NCBI GenBank assembly: GCA_000004985.1
Contig: GG738877.1
Reading direction: 5' to 3' (one strand)
DNA: 64,000 nucleotides
Origin: Naegleria gruberi
Lineage: Eukaryota
Positions 1,672-61,500 of this stretch are shown here, in pieces; positions within the stretch are counted from its first letter, which is position 1; the number at the start of each line of letters is the position of its first letter. The notes beneath the pieces are model-generated. The model had not been told where the DNA came from and ran no database searches. It was given only the letters and a program-made list of their open reading frames with translations. The position numbers and the translations under genes were made by a program.

Positions 1672-3384
1672 ATGACATCTTCAAGATTTTCATTAAAAGC
1701 CCTAAAAGCAACCACAAATTCATCTTCAACCCCAACTATCAGTACTACACAAAACGGTGGCAATAGTAGAAATAACAGTGCCTCCACTCCAACCCTCCCA
1801 TCAGATCAACAACAAATTCATCATCATTTAGATATTGCAACCGATCGAAGCCAAACGACTAATGGTAACAATAGAAATAGCATTCACAGTCATCAATCCT
1901 ATCAAATTAATAATAATACAACTCCTTCCTCGGCAACAACACCTCGAACACCAGCAGCAACCATAGGTGTTGCTTCTGGAGTCAGTACTTCTTCTTCATA
2001 TAATCACACAATAACTGTTGATTCAAGTTATGTTGGTGGTAATAATCACATTGATGATGACTTGAATAATTGGAAACCGATTAGTAGAAACAATTCGAAA
2101 AAATCACTTTCGTCTTCTTTCCGTAAATTGCTTTTTGGTTGTAGAAATGTAAGAGGGGATGAAGAAGTTGAACAGGAGAAGAAAATGATTAGTCGATCAT
2201 CATTGTATTTACCTGATGATCAATTATTTAAAGAAACATCAGAAACTTTGGTAGATGATGCTCATCATAATTCTGCTCACGTAATGGCATTGGTTAGTCC
2301 CAGAGGTAAATCATCACCTAGAACTAGTGCAAATCTGTCACCTGCTCGTCATGACGCTGAAATGAAAAGGAGAAGCGTTGAAAGCCCAACCATGATGTTA
2401 ATCGCAGCGAATCAATCACCATCTTCATCTCATCATCATCATACAACACCAAGTGGAGGTTCGAGTAACTACTCACTAAGAAATAAGATATTTGCTGGGG
2501 CTATTCCAGAAGAGAGAGCTGAGGAAGTAATTTTGAATAGTGACTATTCACAAAAAGTTCAATTTCATTTTGAAGGACAATTTGAAGTCAAACAGTGCCA
2601 TAATTTGGAAACTATTTCCGATTTGACTGCATTCAAGGATTGTATCACTCCATTTGTGAAAATTGAGTGGTTTGTCGAGTTTTTCAATACACAAGGTTCT
2701 TTGAAAAACAAGATGGTTCCAATGCTGAAACCAACTCCTAACACTGATACAAATACATGGAAACAAAGCAAAAAGACAACAGTAACCTGTTTGGAAGTGG
2801 GAAGAAAGGAAGTTTCTTGGAATGAAGTTTTGGATTTTTCTATAACTGTGGATGGATATTTGCATAGAAATGTTTTGGAATTTTACAAAAAGAATAGTGA
2901 ATCGTCTCTATTGGATCAAGTAACCAAACCATATGGAGAGAATGTCATAGGAATTTTGAGAGTCAAGTCTCATCTCTATGACTATGACGATTTACTCCTA
3001 CAGGAGAATATCATTTCACATCATACAATGGAATTCCCAATAACTCTTAAAACTTTAATGAAAAATTCTGGTGCTACTTCTCCTTCCCTAAAGATTGAAT
3101 CATACATTGAAAATTTTGGAAATTCAAATTCTCCACTAGGTACCGTTTCTACACCATCTCATGTTAAATTGCAATCTGTTGGAACATCTAAAGGAACAAT
3201 GTCTCCAACACCTCAAGAAAGTGCCATCTCTGGTTTTGGTGAAAATACAATCACCATGTTTGAAAAAAATCAACCAGTGAATGATTATCAAATGGTTCAA
3301 GATTCTGATTCAGAAATTATCCTCACAATAGTACCAGTTATTGAATTGTCTTACTATGTCAAAATGCTTGGTACTTCTGTATAA
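1672..3384 (+). CDS. S/T/N-rich protein with a C-terminal C2-like domain
   Basis: A 570-aa ORF starts at a real ATG. The N-terminal half is low complexity. The C-terminal region PFVKIEWF...VSWNEVLDFSITV...ILRVKSHLYDYDD resembles a C2 beta-sandwich. Confidence 0.55.
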   Translation: MTSSRFSLKALKATTNSSSTPTISTTQNGGNSRNNSASTPTLPSDQQQIHHHLDIATDRSQTTNGNNRNSIHSHQSYQINNNTTPSSATTPRTPAATIGVASGVSTSSSYNHTITVDSSYVGGNNHIDDDLNNWKPISRNNSKKSLSSSFRKLLFGCRNVRGDEEVEQEKKMISRSSLYLPDDQLFKETSETLVDDAHHNSAHVMALVSPRGKSSPRTSANLSPARHDAEMKRRSVESPTMMLIAANQSPSSSHHHHTTPSGGSSNYSLRNKIFAGAIPEERAEEVILNSDYSQKVQFHFEGQFEVKQCHNLETISDLTAFKDCITPFVKIEWFVEFFNTQGSLKNKMVPMLKPTPNTDTNTWKQSKKTTVTCLEVGRKEVSWNEVLDFSITVDGYLHRNVLEFYKKNSESSLLDQVTKPYGENVIGILRVKSHLYDYDDLLLQENIISHHTMEFPITLKTLMKNSGATSPSLKIESYIENFGNSNSPLGTVSTPSHVKLQSVGTSKGTMSPTPQESAISGFGENTITMFEKNQPVNDYQMVQDSDSEIILTIVPVIELSYYVKMLGTSV

Positions 3385-3861
3385 ATTGTACATTATAATT
3401 TATAAACTTTTCCATTCTTTTGTTTTTCAAATAGTTTTCAATTCAAAATTCATAGGATGTAAAATTGGTTTAGAACCTTAGAGAGGATGTAAATATTAAT
3501 CAGTATGCTGTTATGCTTCAAGTACTAGACGTTCAGTCCCGAAAGGTGAAAAATTTGTGTTATCATCAGATTAACAATCGAACTATCCTTGCCATATCAC
3601 TCTTCGGCTTATCAACCCGTGACACAAAACAAGTATTTATGGTTTTTAATTTTTTTAAAATATTAAATTCAAAAAGTGGCGCCAAAATCCAATACAGATA
3701 ATTAAATAGGTTCAAAACAAACCTAGCCACTCGCATTTCAATATAGTGGAAAGAACTTGAAGAAAAAATACGTTATAAAATATCGCTACAACTAACGGAA
3801 GCCCTGGAGAATAAGAATAACCTTAAAAAAAATACGTTGACAACAAACACATCAACAAGAA

Positions 3862-5577
3862 ATGAGGCATTCTAGGCCTCCCGTATATAATCACTTTCAT
3901 CATTCTAGCAACAATAATGGAGGATTAGGTCGGGATGATTTTCTTATGAATAGTAAAGATAAATTTAATGTGGATCTAAAATCATCACTTAATGATTTGC
4001 AAATAACAAATAGTTTGAGGAAAAGTATGAATAGGAGAGAATCTATGGAGGATTTGACAGTATTTTTGGAAAAGAATCAAAATAGTGGATTACTCCCTAT
4101 TCAACCAACACCACCTCCGTTGAATAGGGAAGATTCTTTGGCCAATGATGTTTTTACTTATCAGGATAGTATGAAAGAATTTTCTTTGGAAGAATTGAAA
4201 CATCATCACCTTAGACGTCTAAATGAATCTAGGAATGAATCATATAGAGCCAGTAACTATTTTGAATCGGCTGCCTCGCTCATTACCACCACAACCGAAG
4301 AGCAAAACTATTATGACGAAGATGACGAGAATATAGCTATTGAGGGTGTTGATAGAGAGAGTGACATTATGCTCCACAGTGATGATGAGGACTATCAAGA
4401 TGAGGATGATTTCGAGGGTCAAAATCATCTCCTTGGTAAAAAAAAAGTTAAGGTTTTCCCTTTCCTTGTGGATTCTCCACCTGATTTGAAAAAGAAAGGC
4501 CGAACAAAAGCATTACAAGTTGCCTACAATAAGAGAAAGGAAAAACTTCAGAGAGTTAAACAAGAGCTAGAAATGGGTAGAACAAGTCCAACACTCTTCT
4601 CTATCAATTCACAAACACCTCCTCCTTTCAGAAAGAGCCCTTGTCCTCCACTGGATATTTTCCATCAAAATAGTTTTCACAAGAAAAAGCCAGATCCTCT
4701 CCTCTCCTCAATCGAATCCCTCCTTGTACAAATACCTCACCAATCATCCTCAGCCACCTCAATATCGCAACAGAATCATCACAACCTCTCCACCTTTGTT
4801 CCAAGCAAAGAAAGACCCTCCTCAATGAAGGCAGGTCATCGAAAGAAGAATTTAACCAGCAGTGCTGATGGAACTAAAACAAGTCGTTCAGTCTCCTCAA
4901 CCAATGTAAACTTGAACTGTTTACAGAAGGATCCTATTCCTGATGATTATTTGGGGCATCACATTGCAACAACTTCATCACGAATACAGTCCAAATACAA
5001 GGAACACTTTGCAGTTTCGAAAAATCCAATAGTAGTTATTGCAAATAGAAATCAATATAAGGAGAAAAAAGCTGATAAGGAAAAAGCTTTACAAAACAAT
5101 TCTTCCAGTTCTTCCTCTCTACCACTTCCCATCTCCAACTCTCAACCATCCCAATCTCTTGCTCCTCCACACAAATCAAACAATACCACAACAACCAGTA
5201 CAGTTAAGGAGCCAATGAATAGAGCTCCACTGTATAAAATTCCCCAAGCTCCAAAGAGGAAGAAATTAACACCAGAAGATTTGGGACTAACCTATCAAGC
5301 TAGTTTAGAACTTGATAAGGGACTTCCAACATCTTGTCAAGTTGATGCAAAGAAGGTAATCATGCAAACTCTTATCAATTCTTGGATTGGTATTGGACCT
5401 TCACTAGGAGATGTAAATGTTGAAAATAGAAAACCACTCAATTTGAAACCTTCCAAGATTACCTCTTCCAATCCTGAGGAAAGAAGAAAGGAAATTTTGA
5501 AATTAATGTACAAGGACAGGCAAACAGAGGTGAAGGAGAACATTCTGAAACCAAAGCAAACAAAGAAGAATAGGTAG
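3862..5577 (+). CDS. hypothetical S/P-rich acidic/basic protein
   Basis: A 571-aa single-exon ORF with an ATG start. It is compositionally biased and I recognise no domain. Confidence 0.5.
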   Translation: MRHSRPPVYNHFHHSSNNNGGLGRDDFLMNSKDKFNVDLKSSLNDLQITNSLRKSMNRRESMEDLTVFLEKNQNSGLLPIQPTPPPLNREDSLANDVFTYQDSMKEFSLEELKHHHLRRLNESRNESYRASNYFESAASLITTTTEEQNYYDEDDENIAIEGVDRESDIMLHSDDEDYQDEDDFEGQNHLLGKKKVKVFPFLVDSPPDLKKKGRTKALQVAYNKRKEKLQRVKQELEMGRTSPTLFSINSQTPPPFRKSPCPPLDIFHQNSFHKKKPDPLLSSIESLLVQIPHQSSSATSISQQNHHNLSTFVPSKERPSSMKAGHRKKNLTSSADGTKTSRSVSSTNVNLNCLQKDPIPDDYLGHHIATTSSRIQSKYKEHFAVSKNPIVVIANRNQYKEKKADKEKALQNNSSSSSSLPLPISNSQPSQSLAPPHKSNNTTTTSTVKEPMNRAPLYKIPQAPKRKKLTPEDLGLTYQASLELDKGLPTSCQVDAKKVIMQTLINSWIGIGPSLGDVNVENRKPLNLKPSKITSSNPEERRKEILKLMYKDRQTEVKENILKPKQTKKNR

Positions 5578-14863: not shown

Positions 14864-14934
14864 TGCGTCGACCGGGAATTGAACCCGGGTCACGGCGATG
14901 GCAACGCCGTATTCTACCACTAAACCATCGACGC
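14864..14934 (-). tRNA. tRNA-Gly(GCC)
   Basis: Reverse complement: GCGTCGA TG GTTTAGTGGTAGAAT ACGGCG TTGCCAT CGCCGT GACCCGGGTTCAATTCCCGG TCGACGC A. It is a cloverleaf with anticodon GCC. Confidence 0.9.
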
Positions 14935-25243: not shown

Positions 25244-25317
25244 TGCCTCCCTTGGGAATCGAACCCAAGACCTCTGTCTTACTAGGACAGCGCTACTGCC
25301 AACTGAGCTAGGAAGGC
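25244..25317 (-). tRNA. tRNA-Thr(AGU)
   Basis: Reverse complement: GCCTTCC TA GCTCAGTTGGCAGTAGC G CTGTC CTAGTAA GACAG AGGTC TTGGG TTCGATT CCCAA GGGAGGC A. The anticodon is AGT. Confidence 0.9.
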
Positions 25318-49489: not shown

Positions 49490-51356
49490 TTATTCATCTC
49501 GTTGGTTATTTGATTCGGTTGCCGTTTCGGTGGTTTCTTCCTTATTCTCAATCTTGTTATCCTCAATGTTATTTGTATTCTCCAACTTTTCTTCGACCAT
49601 AGGTTCTTCAGCGACTTCTAAAATATGAGGAGATTCAGGAATTGAAGGCAAATCCACAATAACAGGAATATCTTCAGGCAATTTTGGTTTTTGCTCAACT
49701 TCCTTGATTTCTTCATTATTTGAATCAGTATTGTTTCCTTCTTCTTTTAGTTCAGTTTGCTTTTGTTCAACAACTGGTTGGAACACTTGTCCCATCAAAT
49801 CCTTATAACTTTGAGGAGTTTCAACAACTTCCGAATAAATTATTGGAACTGAACTCTCAGTATAGGATGGTGGAGTAGTAAATTCCTTGGCCATTAAGGT
49901 CCTATTGCTTTCAATTAGGCTTTCAACTTGGGCAGAGAAGAGCTTTTGCTTTAACAACATTGTGTTCAATTCTTCATATTGCTTGATGTTTTCTTCTGTC
50001 AGCTGATCAAAGATGTTCTTGTAAAGCACAACATCCTTTAAATCAAAATTTGGTTTGTTAAACATTTCCTCAGAGAGTTGCTATAAGATGTCAGGTTATT
50101 TACAATAAAAGTTAGAAACTAACCTTCTCATCTAAATCTAAAATAATTTCCTCTATGTCCTTCTTTTCTTTTGGTTTTTCAGTTTCAACAGGTACTTCAG
50201 CGCAATTATTCATGTTGATTTTGAGAATGGCTTCTTGGTTATTGAATAAATGGTTTTTTCCTCCAAATATTAAGACTGACCCATCCAGATAAACACTAGC
50301 ATGCCCAAATCTCTTTGAATCTTTTTCAGTCTCGAGATTATGTGAATACTTCTTCCATTCAAATGTTGCTAAATTGAGGGAGTATAAATCATTCTTTGGG
50401 CCTCCAATGTTCCATCCACCATAAATAATCATGCTATCATTACAAACAACAGAACTATGATTTTCTCTTCCGCATGGTATATTTCCAGTGGTGCTCATTG
50501 AGGTCCAACTCAATTCGGAAAGAGAAAGCGACCAAACTTCATTGGAATATGAACCACCAACTTTACCTCCAAAAATTACTAAACTATCAGTTTGCTGATT
50601 GTAAACCATTGTGTGACCAGATCGAGGGGTAGGAGAATCACCATTCACCATTACCTTACTCCACAACTTGGTTTCATTGTCAAAAACAAATACATCGTTG
50701 AAAACACTCTCTGATCCAACTTGAGAAGAAATGCCTCCAAAGATGTACATCTTGTTGGCAACAGCTGCTGTTGAGTGTTGCTTCCTTCCTTGTGGGACTA
50801 GAGTTGTGTCTTGATCAGCATTTTCTGGAGCAACAGCCCACTCTAATTTTTCCAAGTCTAAACAATAGATACAATTATTTCCACCATTAATCCATTGATT
50901 ATCAGTTCCTCCAAAGATGATCATATTATTTTCAAATACTACTAAGGAATGACTGTCTGTTTTAGGAGGGAAATCAAAACATCTTGGCTTCTTCCATGAG
51001 ATACGCTTATTTGATTCTCCTTCAAGTATTGTAAGGCTGTTCGTCCAAAATCCACTAGAATTTTCCCCTCCATAAATGTAAACCTTATTAGCGACTGCAA
51101 TTGCTCTTTGCAAAAAATTGGCTGGTCCTTCCCCTTCAACATTAATCACAACTATATTGGAATCAGAAGATGTTGTTTCTGTTGTTCTTGTTGGAATATT
51201 ATCAATGGAAACAGTGGTAGAATCTGATATTTCGCAAGTAGTAGTGGATGGTACTTCCTCAGTAACAATGGATGTTGTTGCCGATGATGATTGCAACATT
51301 GTTGTTGATTCTTCAGGTAATACTGAAACTGGGGCTTCCTCTGATACAACAGACAT
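49490..51356 (-). CDS. Kelch-repeat beta-propeller protein with an acidic C-terminal extension; 2 exons with an intron at 50123-50081
   Basis: There are about 6 kelch blades (YIYGG.., IIFGG.., YIFGG.., VIFGG.., IIYGG.., LIFGG..). The GTTAGT donor and TATAG acceptor join ...LDLDEK|QLSEEMFNKPNF in frame. Confidence 0.7.
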
Positions 51357-51725: not shown

Positions 51726-53490
51726 ATGCTCAACCACTCTCGTTCCGATTTGTGGTCAGGAAAATCTTCTCGGATCATCACGAGTTATTCATCACCATCT
51801 TCATGGATGATGGTTATTGTATTGGTGTTGTTGATGATTTTTAATGTGATGATATCTTTTACTAGTGCACAATATGCACCAAATCCAATTTTATATGAAG
51901 TTTCAACTCGTCCATGGTTATATGAATTATCACAAAAGTATGGTTATCAAATTCGTTTGAACAATATTCCAATGAAGGAATTTCAAGCATTGAAAAATCA
52001 AGGAGTTCAATATATTTGGATGATGGGAATGTGGACTATTGGAAACTATGGTAGATGTAGAGCTACTGATCTTGCTATGAGAGCTACTGATTATGCAGTT
52101 AATTTACCTGATTATCAAATGAGTGATATTATTGCATCTCCATATCAAGTTTTGGAATATACTGTCAATCAACAAGAAATAGGAACTGATAATGATTTGA
52201 TTAATTTGAGACAACAATTGAATGCTATGGGATTAAAATTAATGCTCGATTTTGTTCCAAATCACAGTGCAGTTGATAATCCACTCGTTGAAACAAATTC
52301 ATCCATGTTTATTTTGGCTCCACCAAATCTTTCACCACCTTATGATGCTTATTCCTATCTTCCAAATGGAGTTGCATACGGAAAGGATGGTTATTTTCCT
52401 GCTTGGACTGATACTGCTCAATTGTAAGTGTTGAAATATATTGGTCAATATTAACTTGAAATAATTCAATAGCAATTATTGGAATCAACAGACTAGAAAT
52501 TACCAATTAGGAAATCTAATGAAAGTTGCCAGCATGGCTGATGCAATCAGATGTGACATGGCTATGTTGCCACTCAATTCTCAAATTACCAGAATCTGGG
52601 GACAACAACTCAATCAAAGAGGATACACTCAACCATCGACTGAATTTTGGCAATGGGCAATTTCAACTGTTAAGTCCAAATTCCCAAATACTATCCTTTT
52701 AGCTGAGGTTTATTGGGGTTTGAATGGAGAATTACAACAACTTGGATTTGATTTTACCTACGATAAGGATTTATATGATGCCTTGACAGCTAACAGTAAT
52801 ACTGCTAATATTCATACTTATTTCCTCAACCAACCTTTGTCTTATTTGGCTCACTCTGCTCACTTTGTAGAAAACCACGATCAATCAAGAGCTGTTGCTA
52901 ACTTTGGTTCTGTTGATAGAGCTAATGCTGGTATGTTCAAATTTTTTGCATTTTAACACGAGTTATAATTGACCAAAATAGCCTGTGCCATTTCCTTCTC
53001 TGTACCTGGTATGAAATTTAGTTATTTCGGCCAATGGGTTGGTAAGAAGAATCCACTCGTTGTTCAATTGAGAAGAAGTACCACTGAACCAGTTCAACCA
53101 GATGCTATTAATTTCTATACTGCTTTCATTCCAATTGTTGCCAACTTTACAGTTCCTGGATCAGTATTCTCATACAAGACTGTTGGTCAAAGCAATATTG
53201 CCTATCGTGTATTCGCTTTCCATTGGAGAGTTCCATCCACTGGCTACAGCTATTTGGTTACTGTTAATTATAGTGCTAATCAAGGAAATGGTGCAATCAT
53301 TCTCGATGATGTACCAAATACTAATACTGATATTATTTTTGTTGAGCTCTTCTCTGGAACTCAATATTCCAGAAATGCTCAACAAGTAAGACAAAGTGGT
53401 TTGTTTGTGGTTTTGGATAGTTATCAAGTTCAGATTTTTAAATACCAATCCACCACTCCTTCCTTTAAATTTAATATTAAAAAACATTAA
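51726..53490 (+). CDS. glycoside hydrolase family 13 (alpha-amylase-like) secreted enzyme, 3 exons
   Basis: Exons are 51726-52423, 52497-52930 and 52982-53490. It has a signal/TM N-terminus. GH13 blocks are LMLDFVPNHSAVDNP, AIRCDMAM (an R-x-D region) and FVENHDQSR. The donors are GTAAGT and GTATGT. Confidence 0.75.
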
Positions 53491-53587
53491 TTTATTCCGA
53501 ATAAATAGATACAATTTCTTTTCACATAATTATTCAAATCATCAATAAACTCCGATATCAAATCAAAATAATATTATCATCATTAAA

Positions 53588-53758
53588 TTATTTTTCGGCA
53601 CGTTTAAAAGCTTCAGTAGTTCTAAGTTGTTCTCTCTTTTGCAATTGTTGTAATTCTTGTCTGACATCTCTCTTTGGAAGACTAATTTACAAAATAATTA
53701 TTAAATATATTATTCTCATCCACACTTACTAAACAGGTGTTGCAACACCAGCAACCAT
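53588..53758 (-). CDS. tentative 2-exon micro-gene encoding a ~40-aa tail-type small protein
   Basis: The minus strand reads ATG MVAGVATPV, then a GTAAGT...AATTAG intron, then YLPKRDVRQELQQLQKREQLRTTEAFKRAEK*. A hydrophobic stretch lies upstream in the same frame. This is speculative. Confidence 0.25.
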
Positions 53759-54321
53759 GACAGCAAGAGCCAAAGTTGATAATGTGGCCACTCTCTTTCC
53801 AGGATGTCTATTCCGATGATCATTAAATTATTTTCCACAATAAAACAAACCTCCAAATATCCTTGATTAAGTCCAATGCACTTTTAACCATTTTTTAAAT
53901 TTATTAAAAATAAATGCAATGTAATCATTCATTCATAATTATTAATTCAGATTTGAAAGCCCTATTTTCTTGTGAGAGTGTAGATACCTTAGTTACTTAG
54001 TAGACGCCTTGATAGAAATAATACCAGTGGCTCATTACAGCTGCAGTAAGCCGATACGGATATGTTAAAGATAATGAAGCTCCATTTAGCTGGCTTTACG
54101 GATCCTCCTTATTGAACAAACTGTTCAAACAATTCGAAAAAAACTGAAAAAACACACTGCTTATCCAACACAGAGTTGTAGCAGAAGGAAGTTTGTTATC
54201 AAGGAAAATTGTCTTGCGCCGAAGGGTTCTCATTGAGGATTTTAATTGAGGAGGAATAAGCGTTATCATATCATCATCATAAATTGTATTATATTAACAA
54301 CGAAAAAACATATAGAGCAGT

Positions 54322-55227
54322 ATGCAAGCTAAACAACAATTGTATTATTTTGTAGATATTCAGGAACATAATTATGATTTAAAAGTTTTAGCAAGTACAT
54401 ACTTTCCTCACAGCAATATTAACGTGAGGAATATTCATCAGAGTTATGGAGTCAAGAAACGACAAGTTGAAATGTTAAAACAATATGGAGGAAACAATTA
54501 TATAGAACCTCCTGTGGAATCGTCGTTTCTCTGCTTTAAGAACAAGCTTAATCCGAGGGATAAGTTTTTAAAAACCTTCCTCGATGCCCTCCCTCAGGAA
54601 CATCCAGTTATTAGAGATGGAAAGTTGGAAATCATTCCCACAAGGGACATTGTCTATGGTGATATTATCATGTTGGAGGAAGGAAACATATGCCCAGCCG
54701 ATTGCCGATTTTTGTGGATTGATAAGGAGAAGGAGCTCCTTGTTGACATTACTTCAATTAAGGGAAAGCAGTTTCCTCCTGTACATGCCTCTCTCTTTGC
54801 AACTGATTCTCTCCCATTGAAAACTCAAAATTTAATCTTCTCAGGATGTAAAGTATTACAAGGAAAGGCAATTGCCTTGGTGATTGCAGTTGGATCTAGG
54901 TGTGTACAGGTGAGATTAATTGATTACTTGTTGAAAGAGGCTGCTATGGCGGAAGGGAAAACAATTCCAGAGGAACCAAATGAAAACACAGCAGTTCCAC
55001 TCAGTACAAGGGCTAGGTCACACAGTATGCAATATACAGCTGGTGGTCGGTCGAGTACAGATAGTAAGAGCAGTAAGGGTGACAGTTTGACAGAGAAAAA
55101 GCCACGACAAATTAATAGAGCTGCATCACTATTCAAAGCTAAACAAAGCTCACCTGTTAAAACATATAATCGAAAGTACTCTCTCACTAAGTCTTCTCCG
55201 TCCTCTTCACCACCAACGTTTGTGTAA
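54322..55227 (+). CDS. truncated P-type ATPase N-terminal-like protein, with cation-ATPase-N and actuator-domain homology only; possibly a decaying paralog
   Basis: Cation-ATPase-N block: VKKRQVEMLKQYGGNNYIEPPVESSFLCFKNKLNPRDKFL. Actuator block: VIRDGKLEIIPTRDIVYGDIIMLEEGNICPADCRFL. I see no TM1/TM2, no DKTGT motif and no N/P domains. A stop follows an S-rich tail at 301 aa. Confidence 0.55.
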   Translation: MQAKQQLYYFVDIQEHNYDLKVLASTYFPHSNINVRNIHQSYGVKKRQVEMLKQYGGNNYIEPPVESSFLCFKNKLNPRDKFLKTFLDALPQEHPVIRDGKLEIIPTRDIVYGDIIMLEEGNICPADCRFLWIDKEKELLVDITSIKGKQFPPVHASLFATDSLPLKTQNLIFSGCKVLQGKAIALVIAVGSRCVQVRLIDYLLKEAAMAEGKTIPEEPNENTAVPLSTRARSHSMQYTAGGRSSTDSKSSKGDSLTEKKPRQINRAASLFKAKQSSPVKTYNRKYSLTKSSPSSSPPTFV

Positions 55228-55313: not shown

Positions 55314-56231
55314 TTATTTACTCAATTGAGCAATGTAGACATAGTATGGGATTTTAACTCTACCCAAAGTGAGTTTTGAAACAAGTGGAATCTTACCCAT
55401 GTTTTCTTCAACATGAACAGAATCGAAATGACCTTCAAGGTATGGCAAGTGATCGGCAGAAACATTCAATCCAAAGACCAAATTCAAAAGGGTTTGCCAA
55501 AAGACACGAGTGATAATGTTGTGTTGTTTGGCTCCCTTAGTACTCTTTCTGGAAACATAATAGTCAGTAACGGCCAAAACACCATTCTTACTCAAAAGTT
55601 CATTCTTGATCTTTTCCAACAATTCAATCCAATTTGGAACACTTGTCAAGGAATAACTAATTGTGACAAGGTCAACCTTTGATTGCAAAGCAACTTGTTG
55701 AAGTTCTTCAACAGTAATAACTTCAACTAAATCACCCAATTCTTCAACAGATTTGAGTGTAGATTGACAAGCCTTGGTATTGACAAGATAAATCTTCTTG
55801 AAGTTATTCTTCAATTCTCCATCTTTACATTGAGAAGCCATTTCCTTCAAGTCAGCTTGAGCTCCAAGATCGAGCCAAAACAATTTGGATGCACCTTTGG
55901 ATTGGACAACCTTTTCGTAAGCGAGACTTGACAATCCTTGTCTACCATGTTGGAATTGTCTGATCACTACCAAAATATAATGTAATAACAATTGTTGCAC
56001 TAAACCCCATACATATTGCAACTGTTCCTTGTAAGTCTTTGAACCGGAAATAACAGGTTCTAACAATTGACCATAGAGTGACTTTAATTGCACAATAACT
56101 AGCAAACTGTACTTGTAAATGAGAGAGGCAAGAGTCGATTCTACAACCTTGTTATAATATTCATTCTTCTTTACCTTTCCGTACAACTCACTATTCTCAA
56201 TCTTGTTCAGCACTTGATTAAATTGCTCCAT
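55314..56231 (-). CDS. class-I SAM-methyltransferase-fold-like protein, with a degenerate motif I
   Basis: Motif-like blocks are LFWLDLGAQADL (motif I-like), VDLVTISYSL (motif II-like) and LLSKNGVLAVTDY (motif III-like). The assignment is tentative. Confidence 0.4.
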   Translation of the reverse strand: MEQFNQVLNKIENSELYGKVKKNEYYNKVVESTLASLIYKYSLLVIVQLKSLYGQLLEPVISGSKTYKEQLQYVWGLVQQLLLHYILVVIRQFQHGRQGLSSLAYEKVVQSKGASKLFWLDLGAQADLKEMASQCKDGELKNNFKKIYLVNTKACQSTLKSVEELGDLVEVITVEELQQVALQSKVDLVTISYSLTSVPNWIELLEKIKNELLSKNGVLAVTDYYVSRKSTKGAKQHNIITRVFWQTLLNLVFGLNVSADHLPYLEGHFDSVHVEENMGKIPLVSKLTLGRVKIPYYVYIAQLSK

Positions 56232-56594: not shown

Positions 56595-58307
56595 TTAATT
56601 GGCAGAATTGGAGGCATTCTTAAACTTTTTGATAGTATCAGGATTCAAATCAAGGTCTTCCAAATCTCTCACAATTTCAGCTTGGTTAATTTTTTGCCTT
56701 CTCGTTTGTTCTTCTATAAATTCGAGGGCTTTAGGTTCTAAGGATCGTTGCCACTTCTTTCGTTCCATTTCAATGGAGAGTTTGTACAATTCGAACAAGT
56801 TTCCATCCCTTGATGTGGTATTTTCACATAAAAACTGTTCGCATTTGTCAGAAAGAGATGACAATCCGTATAAATCTGAAATGTGCATCAGTTCAACTGC
56901 ATTTGACTTTGTAATCTCTGCCTTTTCACAATATATATATCTTAATAGAGTTTGAAGTGTGGATTCTAAAGAGAATTGTTGTAGTTCCATAACTGGTAAC
57001 TCATGTGTGGCTTCTTGCTGTTTGAATTTCAAACCATCTTCAAAATCACAATTTCCAAGTACATCAAAGAAAGCACATCTAGACATTGCAATACTCTTGT
57101 GGCATAGCAAAATCTTTCCATCAGTAGAGTTGACCATCTTTAGTCCCATGTTGCAACTCGTTTTTTTCAAGGAATCAATCTTTGACTTGCAATCTTTAAA
57201 GAGATAATTAATAGGATCCAAATCATTCAATAGAACATCCTCTTGTTGGTTATCATTTGCCTCTCTTAGCATATTGAATATGTGGTCAACCATACTTTTC
57301 ATATTGAGCATAACTCCAAGTTCCATCAAACAGTAAATATCATACTTATCACTAATTGGTGGTATTTTGGTAGTGTAGAGATAGGTAAGAGCCAACTCAA
57401 AATGTTCCTTATTGGCGTTAATAGATCCAAAATCAATACACTTAAGATTTGTCTGCGCCATTTCGAAATTTTCCTTTGCTAATGCTTGATTGCACATATC
57501 TAAATTAGGTATTCCAAGTATCATACTATACCTAGATTTCAATTCTTTCAATTTGTTTTTTTCCTGAGTAATAATCCTTGTTAGTCTCTGCTGAATAACA
57601 TTAGTATTATTTCTTTTCACATAATTTTCAAAATCTTGAGCACTCAATTTACATAAATTCATTTCATGCTTATCAAGAGTTGGTAAATTAATCACTTTTT
57701 CTAGTTGAACTTTCTTCAAAGCAAATAATACAATTTGAGGCCATCTCGAGAGAATTATCCAACTTTGACATTTGAACTCTGTTGGCTGATTTTGATCCTT
57801 AAATTTAAATCTCAATATCATATCCTCTCCACTATTTGATTCTCTCAATAATTGATCACTACTTGAATTATTTAAATCATTGTGTAGACATTTCATTAAT
57901 AATTTATGCATCACTGAAAGTACATTGCTTTCCGTATTCATTCCAGAACTGGTCGATGGAATATTCTTGTAATCATTGAATAATTTCAAAACCGATCTTG
58001 TTTGTAATGAAAGGGCATTCCACCAACATCTTCTATACTCATCGTCACGTAAACCCAACTCGGAGAGATACTTTACCAATGAAATTCTCCCACACAGTGA
58101 AGCATAATAGAGGAGAGAATTTCCATGTGCATCTTTGGCATGTAAAAGTTGTCTGGTTTGGTCATTGGTTAGGAGGTTTTTAACACCATGCAAATCACCT
58201 GTTTTGCACATTGAAAATATGGGAGAATCAGAGTGTTCCATTTTTTTTGTTCGAATGAGTTCACTTACAATTATTCGAATTCGGTTGAGAATGAAAAGAA
58301 GAAACAA
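56595..58307 (-). CDS. ankyrin-repeat plus BTB/POZ domain protein
   Basis: N-terminal ankyrin repeat: LLHAKDAHGNSLLYYASLCGRISLVKYLSELG. C-terminal BTB-like: KILLCHKSIAMSRCAFFDVLGNCDF...ELPVMELQQFSLESTLQTLLRYIYCEKAEI... Confidence 0.65.
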   Translation of the reverse strand: MFLLFILNRIRIIVSELIRTKKMEHSDSPIFSMCKTGDLHGVKNLLTNDQTRQLLHAKDAHGNSLLYYASLCGRISLVKYLSELGLRDDEYRRCWWNALSLQTRSVLKLFNDYKNIPSTSSGMNTESNVLSVMHKLLMKCLHNDLNNSSSDQLLRESNSGEDMILRFKFKDQNQPTEFKCQSWIILSRWPQIVLFALKKVQLEKVINLPTLDKHEMNLCKLSAQDFENYVKRNNTNVIQQRLTRIITQEKNKLKELKSRYSMILGIPNLDMCNQALAKENFEMAQTNLKCIDFGSINANKEHFELALTYLYTTKIPPISDKYDIYCLMELGVMLNMKSMVDHIFNMLREANDNQQEDVLLNDLDPINYLFKDCKSKIDSLKKTSCNMGLKMVNSTDGKILLCHKSIAMSRCAFFDVLGNCDFEDGLKFKQQEATHELPVMELQQFSLESTLQTLLRYIYCEKAEITKSNAVELMHISDLYGLSSLSDKCEQFLCENTTSRDGNLFELYKLSIEMERKKWQRSLEPKALEFIEEQTRRQKINQAEIVRDLEDLDLNPDTIKKFKNASNSAN

Positions 58308-58591: not shown

Positions 58592-61500
58592 ATGCCCAAA
58601 CATAAAAATCATCCCACGCATACCACCACATCAACAACGACTACTTCTCAACAACAACCAAACAATAATAATAATATTACTAAACAATCGAGTACAACAG
58701 CATCAACAGCACGTCGTGGAAGTACAACAACAGCTACAACAACAGCACCTGTAATAAAAAAGGAAACAGAGGTGAAAAAAGATGATCCGACTAGTAATAA
58801 TTCGAGGAATATTCATGAAGAATTGAGAAATGAATTATTTGCGGAAGCTATGGTTTTTCCGGATTCGATATCTTTTTATTATGTGAATGAACCTGTTAAA
58901 AAACCAACACAACAATTATCATATTTGGATGTTGTGAACAAACCTAACACTACCAAAGAACCCGAGAAGAAAATTCCCAGATTGGAAGAATTTACAATCG
59001 ATGACCCCGAGAAAATTGATTGTACTAGGAAAATACAAATGATTTATATTTGTACAGTAAATTATACGGACGAAAATTCACCAATGTATAAACAATATGT
59101 TGATCACTTTTCGGAGGAAATTAAGAGGCCAGAAAATAAGCAATCATCTGTAAAATTAATAGTTACGTAAGTAATTAATTTCAGAAATTGAAATACAATT
59201 TCAAATAGTATTCCAGTTGGATATCCAATTCTTCCACCAGAAGTTTCAATAGAAAATATGTCTACTATTTCCAAAGAAGCTATCAATTATGTTTATCAGA
59301 AAGTAATGGTAAGTTGACCTCAATTATTTGTATTTTACTATTAACGCAATAGACGAAATGTGAAGAAGGCAAAGGTTTCCAACTACTTCACGACATTATT
59401 ACCACCTGTACAGACTCACTTAAAGAGTATGCTGATAGATTAGAGGAAAGTTATTTAAAGGAAATAGATAGACTAAGAGAAGAGAAGGAAAGGAGACAGC
59501 AATTGGATAAACAAATGGAAAAGGAAATTAATGAAATGGGTGCCAAAAGAAAAAAGTTGATCAAAGAGGAAAAAACTAGAAAAATTGAACAGAGAATGAA
59601 ATACTTGAATGATAATTCACCAACACCTATTACTAAAGTGACTGAGGATATTTTCAATTATCAAAAAAGTGTTAGTGGAACACCAACAAAAGTAGGGAAA
59701 TCAAGCTTCTTTGTTCATGAAGAGCAGCAAACTGATAGTGAGGAAGAAGAGGAAGATGAAGAGGAAGACGAAGATTACTTTGATAATGGAGAAGATGAAG
59801 AGGAGGAAGATGAAGAAGATGAGGAAGATGAGGAAGAAGAAGAGGAAACATCTGATGAGGAAGATGGAAAACCATCAAAGTTTTTCAAGCGTTCTGGACT
59901 TGTTGACACAAGTGAGGAGGAGGAAAGCGATCAAGAAGAGGAGGAGGAAGAAGAAGAAATCATTGTAACAGAAGATGATGAGGATGAAAGATCTTCCACT
60001 TCTAAAAAGAAGGCTACCAAGAAGAGCCATGCCAAATCCTCATCCTCTCCAATCAATATTTCATCTGCCTATGATAATAGCTCATCTAGTAACAACTCGA
60101 GTCCAAGTGTAGGAGTTGCCTCCTCAAGTCCTTCTAAAAACTTTATGCACTACTACCTTAATTCAAAGAAGAAAAAACAAGATGAGGAAGATGTTGAAGA
60201 ATCCACAAATGGTGACAGAACTCAAATTCTTCTTATACACATGCTTAGAATGTTTTGCAATAGGCTCTCTAAAAATCAACAAACTGCCTTTACAGATCTT
60301 TCTGATCAGCTAATGAAAATAGGAGTACTGAACTCTGGTATGAGAAGGTACACAGAAAACTTTGCAGATCTAAAGGACCAATTCAAATTATTATTTAACG
60401 AGCAAATCAAATCTTCGAGTGAAAATCCATCAGAGCCATTCTCTTTCTTTTGGAAGGAACCAACTGATCAAATTGACTCTTCATCAAACCATGCTTCCAG
60501 ATACAAATCTGATTTCGAAGAATTGGAAAAGCTTGGAGAGGGAGGTTTTGGTTCAGTGACAAAGGTTAAGAATATGCTCGATCAAAGAATTTATGCCATT
60601 AAGAAAATCAAGTTCCATACACAAAGGGACGAAAAAGAGGAAAAGACAATTCTCAGAGAAGTTAATCTTCTGTCAAGGCTGAATCACAGTTACATTGTCA
60701 GATATTTTAATGCATGGAGAGAAGAAAACAATGAGACTATTGATAGTGAATCTGATTTCCTGAGCACACCTGAAGACAGTGAAGCTTTCTACGATTATTC
60801 ATTCTCTTCCTCTGTTCATTCAGAATTGAGAACCAAAACATATTCCGAGATGAAATCAGCCAACACTTTTAATAAGAATTTGCCTACTCGTATACTTTAC
60901 ATTCAGATGGAGTACTGTCAGCAAATTCTTTCCGATCTGATCAACAATGCCGAACTTTCCAAGGAAGAGGCTTGGAGATATTTCAGACAAACTGTGGAAG
61001 CTTTAGATTACCTTCACAAAAATGATATTATTCACAGAGATTTGAAACCTTCGAATCTTTTCATCAGTGTTGATAAGACTATCAAAGTTGGTGACTTTGG
61101 TTTGTCTGTGGCTGTAAGAGGAAAGAGCTACCAGCAATCTAGGCAATTAAGCAGGGGAGCTTCAGAACATTCATTTTCTCTTTCCAATTCGTCAGATTTG
61201 TCAACTGGTGTAGGTACTATCATGTATGCTGCCCCAGAAGTTTTAACTTCACCTCATTACACATCCAAAGTTGACATTTATTCACTAGGAATAATATTTT
61301 TCGAAATGCTTCATCCAAGATTTTCAACAGGCTCAGAAAGATTGGCTGTTCTCAGCAAACTTAGAGAATCTGGAAAAGTTCCAAATACTTTCCCAGCCAT
61401 TTACGAGAAGGAAAAGGAATTGATAGAGTGGATGCTTAACTCAGACCCCGAAAAACGACCAACAGCTGAACAACTCTTAACCTCCGAATATATGCCAATA

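Follow-up and report, generated by a model that had tools for sequence, protein, structure and literature searches.

The TGES loop in the actuator (A) domain of P-type ATPases places the water molecule that hydrolyzes the aspartyl-phosphate. A precedent for soluble stand-alone paralogs of cytosolic pump domains is provided by the metallochaperones Atx1 and CopZ, whose counterparts in P1B Cu-ATPases are the metal-binding domains and which work with the pump in trans. Apart from these copper chaperones, the soluble or small regulators of P-type pumps known to us are either unrelated to pump domains or represent membrane peptides (phospholamban, sarcolipin, FXYD). MicroProteins are small single-domain relatives of multi-domain proteins, which they regulate by non-productive binding (PMC4807768, PMC9638782). 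Here we analyzed a 64,000-nucleotide stretch of nuclear DNA from Naegleria gruberi (contig GG738877.1; hereafter the window), which harbors NAEGRDRAFT_69227, a gene for a stand-alone A-domain protein. The best explanation as a whole, with a probability of roughly 0.55, is that this gene encodes a selectively maintained soluble A domain of the Na,K/H,K-ATPase (P2C) type, which acts as a non-catalytic binder, perhaps on a pump in trans.

The protein shares with the microProteins the derivation of one domain from a larger ancestor; it is catalytically inert and could keep a docking surface. However, the microProtein concept stems from transcription factors and photoreceptors, the Naegleria protein has a mass of 34 kDa versus the usual limit of about 20 kDa, and its binding to a pump is putative. 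The copper chaperones differ in that their metal-binding domain is ferredoxin-like and not an A domain, in their affiliation with another pump class and in their known ligand Cu+. Neither stand-alone A-domain proteins nor the gene identifiers reported here were described in the literature that we searched. A conserved protein of this kind would be a new type of pump-derived protein, and the comparisons presented below show that the A domain of P-type ATPases exists as an independent conserved protein with apparently convergent counterparts in other eukaryotes.

The open reading frame (ORF) is 100% identical over its full length to XP_002675523.1 (NAEGRDRAFT_69227, UniProt D2VK07), whose annotation reads only “predicted protein” or “A domain-containing protein”. 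This confirms the original prediction of a stand-alone ORF of 301 amino acids with a stop codon after a serine-rich tail. Both the start (MQAKQQLYYF) and the C-terminal end are collinear with those of the heterolobosean orthologs. The gene is composed of the following parts:

54322-55227, plus strand: complete intronless gene NAEGRDRAFT_69227, 301 codons plus stop, stand-alone actuator-domain protein
54322-54363, plus strand: N-terminal extension, amino acids 1-14, heterolobosean-specific (QLYYFVDIQ), strongly conserved in four orthologs, with a predicted helix at 2-10 (AlphaFold2)
54364-54519, plus strand: N-terminal half of the A domain, amino acids 15-66 (EHxYDL...GxN..EPP), delimited by alignment with the pump P0026; predicted local distance difference test score (pLDDT) 93-98
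54520-54552, plus strand: linker SSFLCFKNKLN replacing the M1-M2 hairpin, amino acids 67-77, delimited by the spacing in four orthologs; contains the invariant Cys71
54553-54903, plus strand: stub of the cytoplasmic end of M2 (helix 78-89) and beta-rich A core, amino acids 78-194
54757-54768, plus strand: IKGK at the position of the TGES loop, amino acids 146-149, located by alignments
54904-54966, plus strand: helix equivalent to the A-to-M3 linker, amino acids 195-215 (helix 195-210 in the model; pump alignment to about amino acid 200-220)
54967-55224, plus strand: disordered basic Ser/Thr-rich tail, amino acids 216-301 (pLDDT <50 for 224-294)

The only Pfam domain found is PF00122 (E1-E2_ATPase) on amino acids 91-195 (E=7.9e-13; 48.7 bits versus a cut-off of 28.1), and the score above the gathering threshold together with the three-dimensional fold documents the membership in the A-domain family. 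A phmmer comparison with all PDB chains yielded as top matches the alpha subunits of Na,K-ATPase and H,K-ATPase (amino acids 71-200, E about 2e-11 to 1e-9), followed by MgtA, SPCA and SERCA (1e-7 to 1e-5); the top PDB matches are of the P2C type by sequence and by fold. TIGR01106 is the best model for all four orthologs. Their scores of 51-73 bits remain far under the cut-off of 946 bits, since they contain no pump part other than the A domain. Judged from these matches, the parent pump appears to be Na,K/H,K-like (P2C) and not a Ca-ATPase as had been proposed.

The N-terminal segment yielded no match to PF00690 (Cation_ATPase_N) at E <=0.1. Amino acids 15-70 nevertheless align with residues 41-95 of the full-length P2C pump P0026 from the nematode Ditylenchus (39% identity, pairwise E=5e-9) across the motif EHxxDLxxL...PxSNIxxxN...G....E.L...GxN..PP. 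The pairwise and structural alignments document that this segment is homologous to the Cation_ATPase_N-like part of pumps despite the missing PF00690 call, and the earlier description of such a segment followed by an actuator block accordingly holds for homology but not for the Pfam assignment. Seven residues are invariant in our alignment A5 (E15, H16, L20, L23, G43, N59, P64), and the proportion of nonsynonymous differences (pN) amounts to 0.23 over amino acids 1-42. Homology to pumps stops around amino acid 200-220, just short of M3. NAEGRDRAFT_69227 is a complete A domain that corresponds to roughly the initial quarter of a pump without M1-M2, rather than to the N-terminal tenth of a P-type ATPase that had been estimated.

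The most conspicuous structural deviation from the pumps is the loss of the first membrane hairpin. The distance between the GxN and VxRxG motifs comprises 39 amino acids in NAEGRDRAFT_69227 and 39-41 across the four orthologs, versus 89-94 in hairpin-bearing relatives, which possess a strongly hydrophobic stretch within this interval. The peak 19-residue hydropathy of the Naegleria protein is 1.66 and falls on a conserved beta-strand of the A domain, in agreement with the predicted absence of TM1/TM2. Transmembrane helices M1-M6 or beyond are absent according to the hydropathy profile, the deletion of M1-M2 and the end of the homologous region before M3. The ORF likewise contains neither a DKTGT motif nor a haloacid dehalogenase (HAD)-type P domain. 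From the comparison with Na,K-ATPase, the deletion appears to span from a point after (K)FCRQLF, which we take to be the P2C motif at the start of M1, to a point before “...SKIMESFKNMVP” at the end of M2. Cys71 within the linker is invariant in the four heterolobosean proteins. We considered this residue as a new lipidation site, but it aligns with the FC of the motif named above and is perhaps merely inherited, so that lipidation is left as speculation.

The second deviation concerns the catalytic loop. The TGES position reads IKGK in three of the four heterolobosean proteins and LRGR in the fourth, whereas TGE[SAVT..] is present in about 95% of 108 fetched hairpin-bearing relatives. Both the threonine and the catalytic glutamate are replaced by Lys or Arg in each ortholog, with a K/R exchange that keeps the charge, and none of the four proteins possesses the TGES dephosphorylation loop of a functional P-type ATPase. 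This agrees with the earlier statement that a TGES-quality motif is missing. Since the loop reads [KR]-G-[KR], the protein is unable to position water for aspartyl-phosphate hydrolysis. A second acid-to-base change affects PLETRN of the aligned full-length pumps and of human Na,K-ATPase, which is converted to PLKT[QHK]N (PLKTQN in NAEGRDRAFT_69227). Despite the lost catalytic role, the [KR]G[KR] loop is under constraint in these proteins.

The structural model comprises both halves of the A domain, a small beta-hairpin at the linker (pLDDT 87) and the two helices 78-89 and 195-210, which are taken as cytoplasmic stubs of M2 and M3 from the model and from their position in the pump alignment. 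According to this prediction, the A domain is soluble and self-contained, has about 24 kDa (about 215 amino acids) of folded chain and is followed by a disordered tail. From amino acid 203 onward the tail contains 27% S+T, 17% K+R and seven [RK]xx[ST] sites. This composition and the sites recur in all orthologs, whereas the sequence of the tail is almost unconserved (pN 0.58-0.75); the tail of Willaertia magna exhibits KKKQKLTKKKSR-type runs. In comparison with the A domain of the P2C pumps (Na,K/H,K-ATPase alpha, TIGR01106; PDB 8ijl, 9kcj, 2xzb), the Naegleria protein lacks M1-M10 and the P and N domains, carries [KR]G[KR] instead of TGES and PLKTQN instead of PLETRN, and represents a soluble protein of about 215 folded residues plus a disordered tail that is encoded by its own intronless gene. 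It would provide a natural soluble A domain for biochemistry, which is predicted to fold without the membrane part.

Word-indexed searches and exhaustive hidden Markov model profile searches of 1.84 billion cluster representatives retrieved three orthologs, namely from an environmental contig (P0002, 267 amino acids, E=5.8e-149), from N. fowleri (P0006, FDP41_008876, 327 amino acids, E=3e-85) and from W. magna (P0007, ABK040_013856, 274 amino acids, E=1.8e-79). The next match of the exhaustive profile search is a pump at 4e-19. This gap from 1e-79 to 4e-19 argues against a recent parent and against a recent duplication. The best pump matches are mostly metagenome sequences, plus a nematode and a bacterium, and no Naegleria pump was identified among them. 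The full-length parent presumed by the original prediction did not emerge: tblastn with the ORF found neither a second copy nor a parent in the 64-kb window but only the ORF itself, and the profile search revealed no close full-length pump. As judged from these homologs, the truncation is old and predates the split of Naegleria and Willaertia.

The four heterolobosean genes are uninterrupted frames of 267-327 codons that share both their start (M[QL]xK.QLY.F[VI]DI.EH) and their domain boundaries. Nei-Gojobori proportions were calculated for all six pairs of these genes. Synonymous sites are saturated (pS 0.73-0.81), whereas the folded body (amino acids 1-203) exhibits a pN of 0.28-0.33 and identities of 50-58%; where a Jukes-Cantor correction was computable, omega is about 0.13-0.16. 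Conservation of the body exceeds that of the product of the neighboring methyltransferase gene (34-47% identical). The low pN is indicative of a gene under selection, and NAEGRDRAFT_69227 is, by this measure, selectively maintained. Of the two fates that had been envisaged, a decaying duplicate is contradicted by the conserved open frames and the low pN, while a retained soluble protein is in accordance with the data.

Membrane-less A-domain proteins are also present in other eukaryotes. A profile built from 11 hairpin-less sequences retrieved 173 proteins at E <=1e-8. Nearly all of the 120 that were listed have a length of 190-300 amino acids and contain PF00122 only or together with PF00690, and those named among them originate from diatoms (Nitzschia, Pseudo-nitzschia, Fistulifera, Skeletonema, Craspedostauros). 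The diatom family (P0041, P0043, P0163-P0277) exceeds 120 clusters at 90% identity, and no description of it was found in the searchable literature. Its members are expressed, as several MMETSP transcripts are marked complete. The fetched set contains 138 hairpin-less sequences, 123 of which exhibit a GxN-VxRxG spacing of exactly 40.

Proteins with the same short-linker architecture, which end before M3 like the Naegleria protein, were found in diatoms (Nitzschia inconspicua KAG7341577.1, Fistulifera solaris FisN_5Hh518, Pseudo-nitzschia, MMETSP transcripts), in Hydra vulgaris (XP_065645570.1; Hydra type P0055, P0097) and in the rotifer Didymodactylos carnosus (CAF0863591.1; rotifer type P0012, P0015; 200 amino acids, LTSKD, L007 1587-2189). 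One of the hairpin-less Hydra proteins was automatically named “Na/K-ATPase alpha-4” (229 amino acids, ITGN). A tandem group (P0011, P0036) consists of two hairpin-less units, with P0011 comprising 375 amino acids. The diatom, Hydra and rotifer proteins have 175-325 amino acids with PF00122 only or sometimes PF00690 in addition, thereby resembling the Naegleria protein, and share about 25-40% identity with it. Unlike the latter, the diatom proteins possess a conserved Cys-rich linker at the position of M1-M2 (CPxW[LIV]C[CIV][ILV]LPCI, typically CPxWLCxxLPCI) and have a mixed TGES position (TGEE, TGED, TGQS, TGQT) with TGE kept in about half of them. The NCBIfam comparison reveals a further difference, as the P3A H+-ATPase model is the best match of P0043, the single diatom member scanned, whereas that of the heterolobosean, rotifer and Hydra proteins is P2C. 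The Fistulifera gene (L005 6001-6627) and the rotifer gene are isolated and consist of a single exon; no remainder of a pump lies beside these two inspected loci.

The best BLAST neighbor outside each membrane-less group is a hairpin-bearing sequence or a pump fragment. In a neighbor-joining bootstrap tree based on 113 columns and 72 taxa, monophyly of the individual groups received 95% for Heterolobosea, 92% for the Hydra type, 97% for the tandem type, 99% for the diatoms and 57% for the rotifer type, whereas the union of any two groups did not exceed 10% and all groups together obtained 0%. The point tree unites Heterolobosea and Hydra as sisters with only 10% support, which possibly reflects long-branch attraction. 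A common membrane-less ancestor of the Naegleria protein and its diatom, Hydra and rotifer counterparts likewise has a bootstrap of at most 10%. A single origin of all membrane-less A-domain proteins thus lacks phylogenetic support. Because the nearest BLAST neighbors lie outside the groups and their unions lack bootstrap support above 10%, independent origins are the better reading, albeit not proven with so few columns. That at least four distant lineages have the same architecture suggests a function that is general and easy to reach, and short entries from protists, diatoms and Hydra that bear the name “Na,K-ATPase alpha” or “Mg-transporting ATPase” are possibly real genes and not fragments.

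Which function did the selection act on? Non-catalytic binding is most likely, as far as the sequences of the four proteins indicate. More tentatively, we propose a microProtein-like model in which docking in trans on the P and N domains of a P-type pump allows the protein to modulate the phosphoenzyme cycle. The A domain would retain its ancestral docking on these domains and act as a microProtein or decoy, its charge-reversed basic loop would lie opposite the acidic phosphorylation site, and the tail with its [RK]xx[ST] sites could serve as a phospho-regulated handle that is targeted by basophilic kinases. The main argument for this trans model is that several lineages possess the fragment architecture; if it originated more than once, a partner that was present from the beginning would be the easiest explanation. 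In its widest form, the proposal would state that soluble, catalytically altered A domains arose repeatedly as trans regulators of P-type pumps in Heterolobosea, diatoms, cnidarians and rotifers, with the Naegleria [KR]G[KR] loop plugging the phosphorylation site and a phosphorylatable tail tuning the binding; this full scenario is rather unlikely to apply in all its parts.

Several observations weigh against the overall explanation, including the pump regulator. A P2C pump of Naegleria is not established, and the literature found names only ENA/P2D genes and ouabain insensitivity. An A domain acting in trans must compete with the tethered A domain of the pump itself. The loss of Thr and Glu at the TGES position and the change from PLETRN to PLKTQN may equally fit a surface that was re-purposed for another anionic ligand. 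Finally, omega is bounded (about 0.15 or less) and not measured because dS is saturated.

The main rival to the trans-regulator reading is a neofunctionalized scaffold unrelated to pumps, whose basic loop (KGK, PLKTQN) and tail bind a different anionic partner, for example nucleic acids, acidic lipids or a phosphoprotein. This scenario is in line with the reversed charge at two positions that are acidic in pumps, the basic tail including the KKKQKLTKKKSR-type runs of W. magna, the conserved N-terminal helix that is specific for Heterolobosea, and the fact that no Naegleria P2C pump was identified. However, it leaves the occurrence of the same excision architecture in several eukaryotic lineages unexplained, and the TGE kept in about half of the diatom proteins suggests that the pump-facing loop can keep its ancestral constraint. 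We regard the scaffold as a serious but doubtful alternative.

A split pump, in which the protein would serve in trans as the A domain of a pump without one, would account for the completeness of the A domain with both halves and the M2 and M3 stubs, but is very improbable given that the Thr and Glu required for dephosphorylation are Lys or Arg in every ortholog; moreover, we know of no P-type pump without an A domain. Even less credible is a decaying pump duplicate whose frame stayed open by chance: the catalytic motifs are gone and the low-complexity tail evolves nearly neutrally, but the scenario is already contradicted by 267-327-codon frames that are open in four lineages despite saturated synonymous sites, by a body pN of 0.28-0.33 versus a pS of 0.73-0.81, by a start, domain boundaries and a [KR]G[KR] loop that are all conserved, and by a confidently folded model. 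Missed exons for M1-M2, DKTGT and the rest of the pump are just as implausible, although introns exist in N. gruberi, the neighboring amylase-like gene is split and a GTGAGA is located at 54910, because DKTG, TGDGxND and TGESxP are absent from every reading frame of the whole 64-kb window, the convergent gene lies only 86 bp downstream, the frame is collinear with three orthologs across the putative donor site to the stop and the M1-M2 deletion lies inside one continuous ORF. The earlier conclusions that DKTGT and downstream pump exons are missing are thereby substantiated.

The genomic neighborhood of the selectively maintained A-domain gene is partly conserved. As noted originally, the adjacent genes on both sides are located on the opposite strand, i.e., a methyltransferase gene (minus) 86 bp downstream and a small gene (minus), which is the closest conserved gene upstream; the amylase-like gene beyond the latter is on the plus strand. 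The gene order of the environmental contig is identical to that of N. gruberi, namely kelch (minus), amylase (plus), small gene (minus), A-domain gene (plus) and methyltransferase (minus). In N. fowleri, the kelch, A-domain and methyltransferase genes are retained; W. magna has kept no more than the tail-to-tail pair formed by the last two. This pair with the orthologous methyltransferase is the sole adjacency kept in all four heterolobosean genomes, with a gap of 16-151 bp:

55314-56231, minus strand: convergent neighbor, class-I S-adenosylmethionine (SAM)-dependent methyltransferase, weak Pfam matches to Methyltransf_23/31/12/11
54322-55227 (plus) and 55314-56231 (minus): A-domain gene and methyltransferase in the window
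3034-3837 and 3915-4850: the pair in L001
8001-8984 and 9136-10209: the pair in L003
8001-8825 and 8842-9747: the pair in L004

The methyltransferase exhibits generic class-I SAM similarity only, with an isoaspartate O-methyltransferase as best PDB match (E=2.6e-4). A functional link with the A-domain gene is possible, the tail-to-tail adjacency being genomic context only.

Between the amylase-like and the A-domain gene, a minus-strand region at about 53582-53809 shares 68.5% nucleotide identity with L001 2704-2952 (minus), a called gene of 82 amino acids without family match in the metagenome contig. The fragmentation of the N. gruberi counterpart into small ORFs may reflect an intron. The alpha-amylase-like gene at 51726-53490 (plus) consists of three ORFs (51726-52427, 52519-52956, 52969-53490), which therefore imply two short introns; it shares 71% nucleotide identity with the metagenome contig over 1.6 kb and is not located at this position in N. 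fowleri. The flanking genes at 50112-51356 (minus), which encodes a six-blade kelch-repeat protein with a Ser/Thr-rich N-terminus, and at 56595-58307 (minus), which encodes an ankyrin and BTB/POZ protein, are ordinary for Naegleria. The window further contains three tRNA genes (Ile-AAT, 1317-1389, plus; Gly-GCC, 14864-14934, minus; Thr-AGT, 25244-25317, minus), and its sole tandem repeat with a score of at least 80 is a GAA-rich 18-mer array at 59739-59840.
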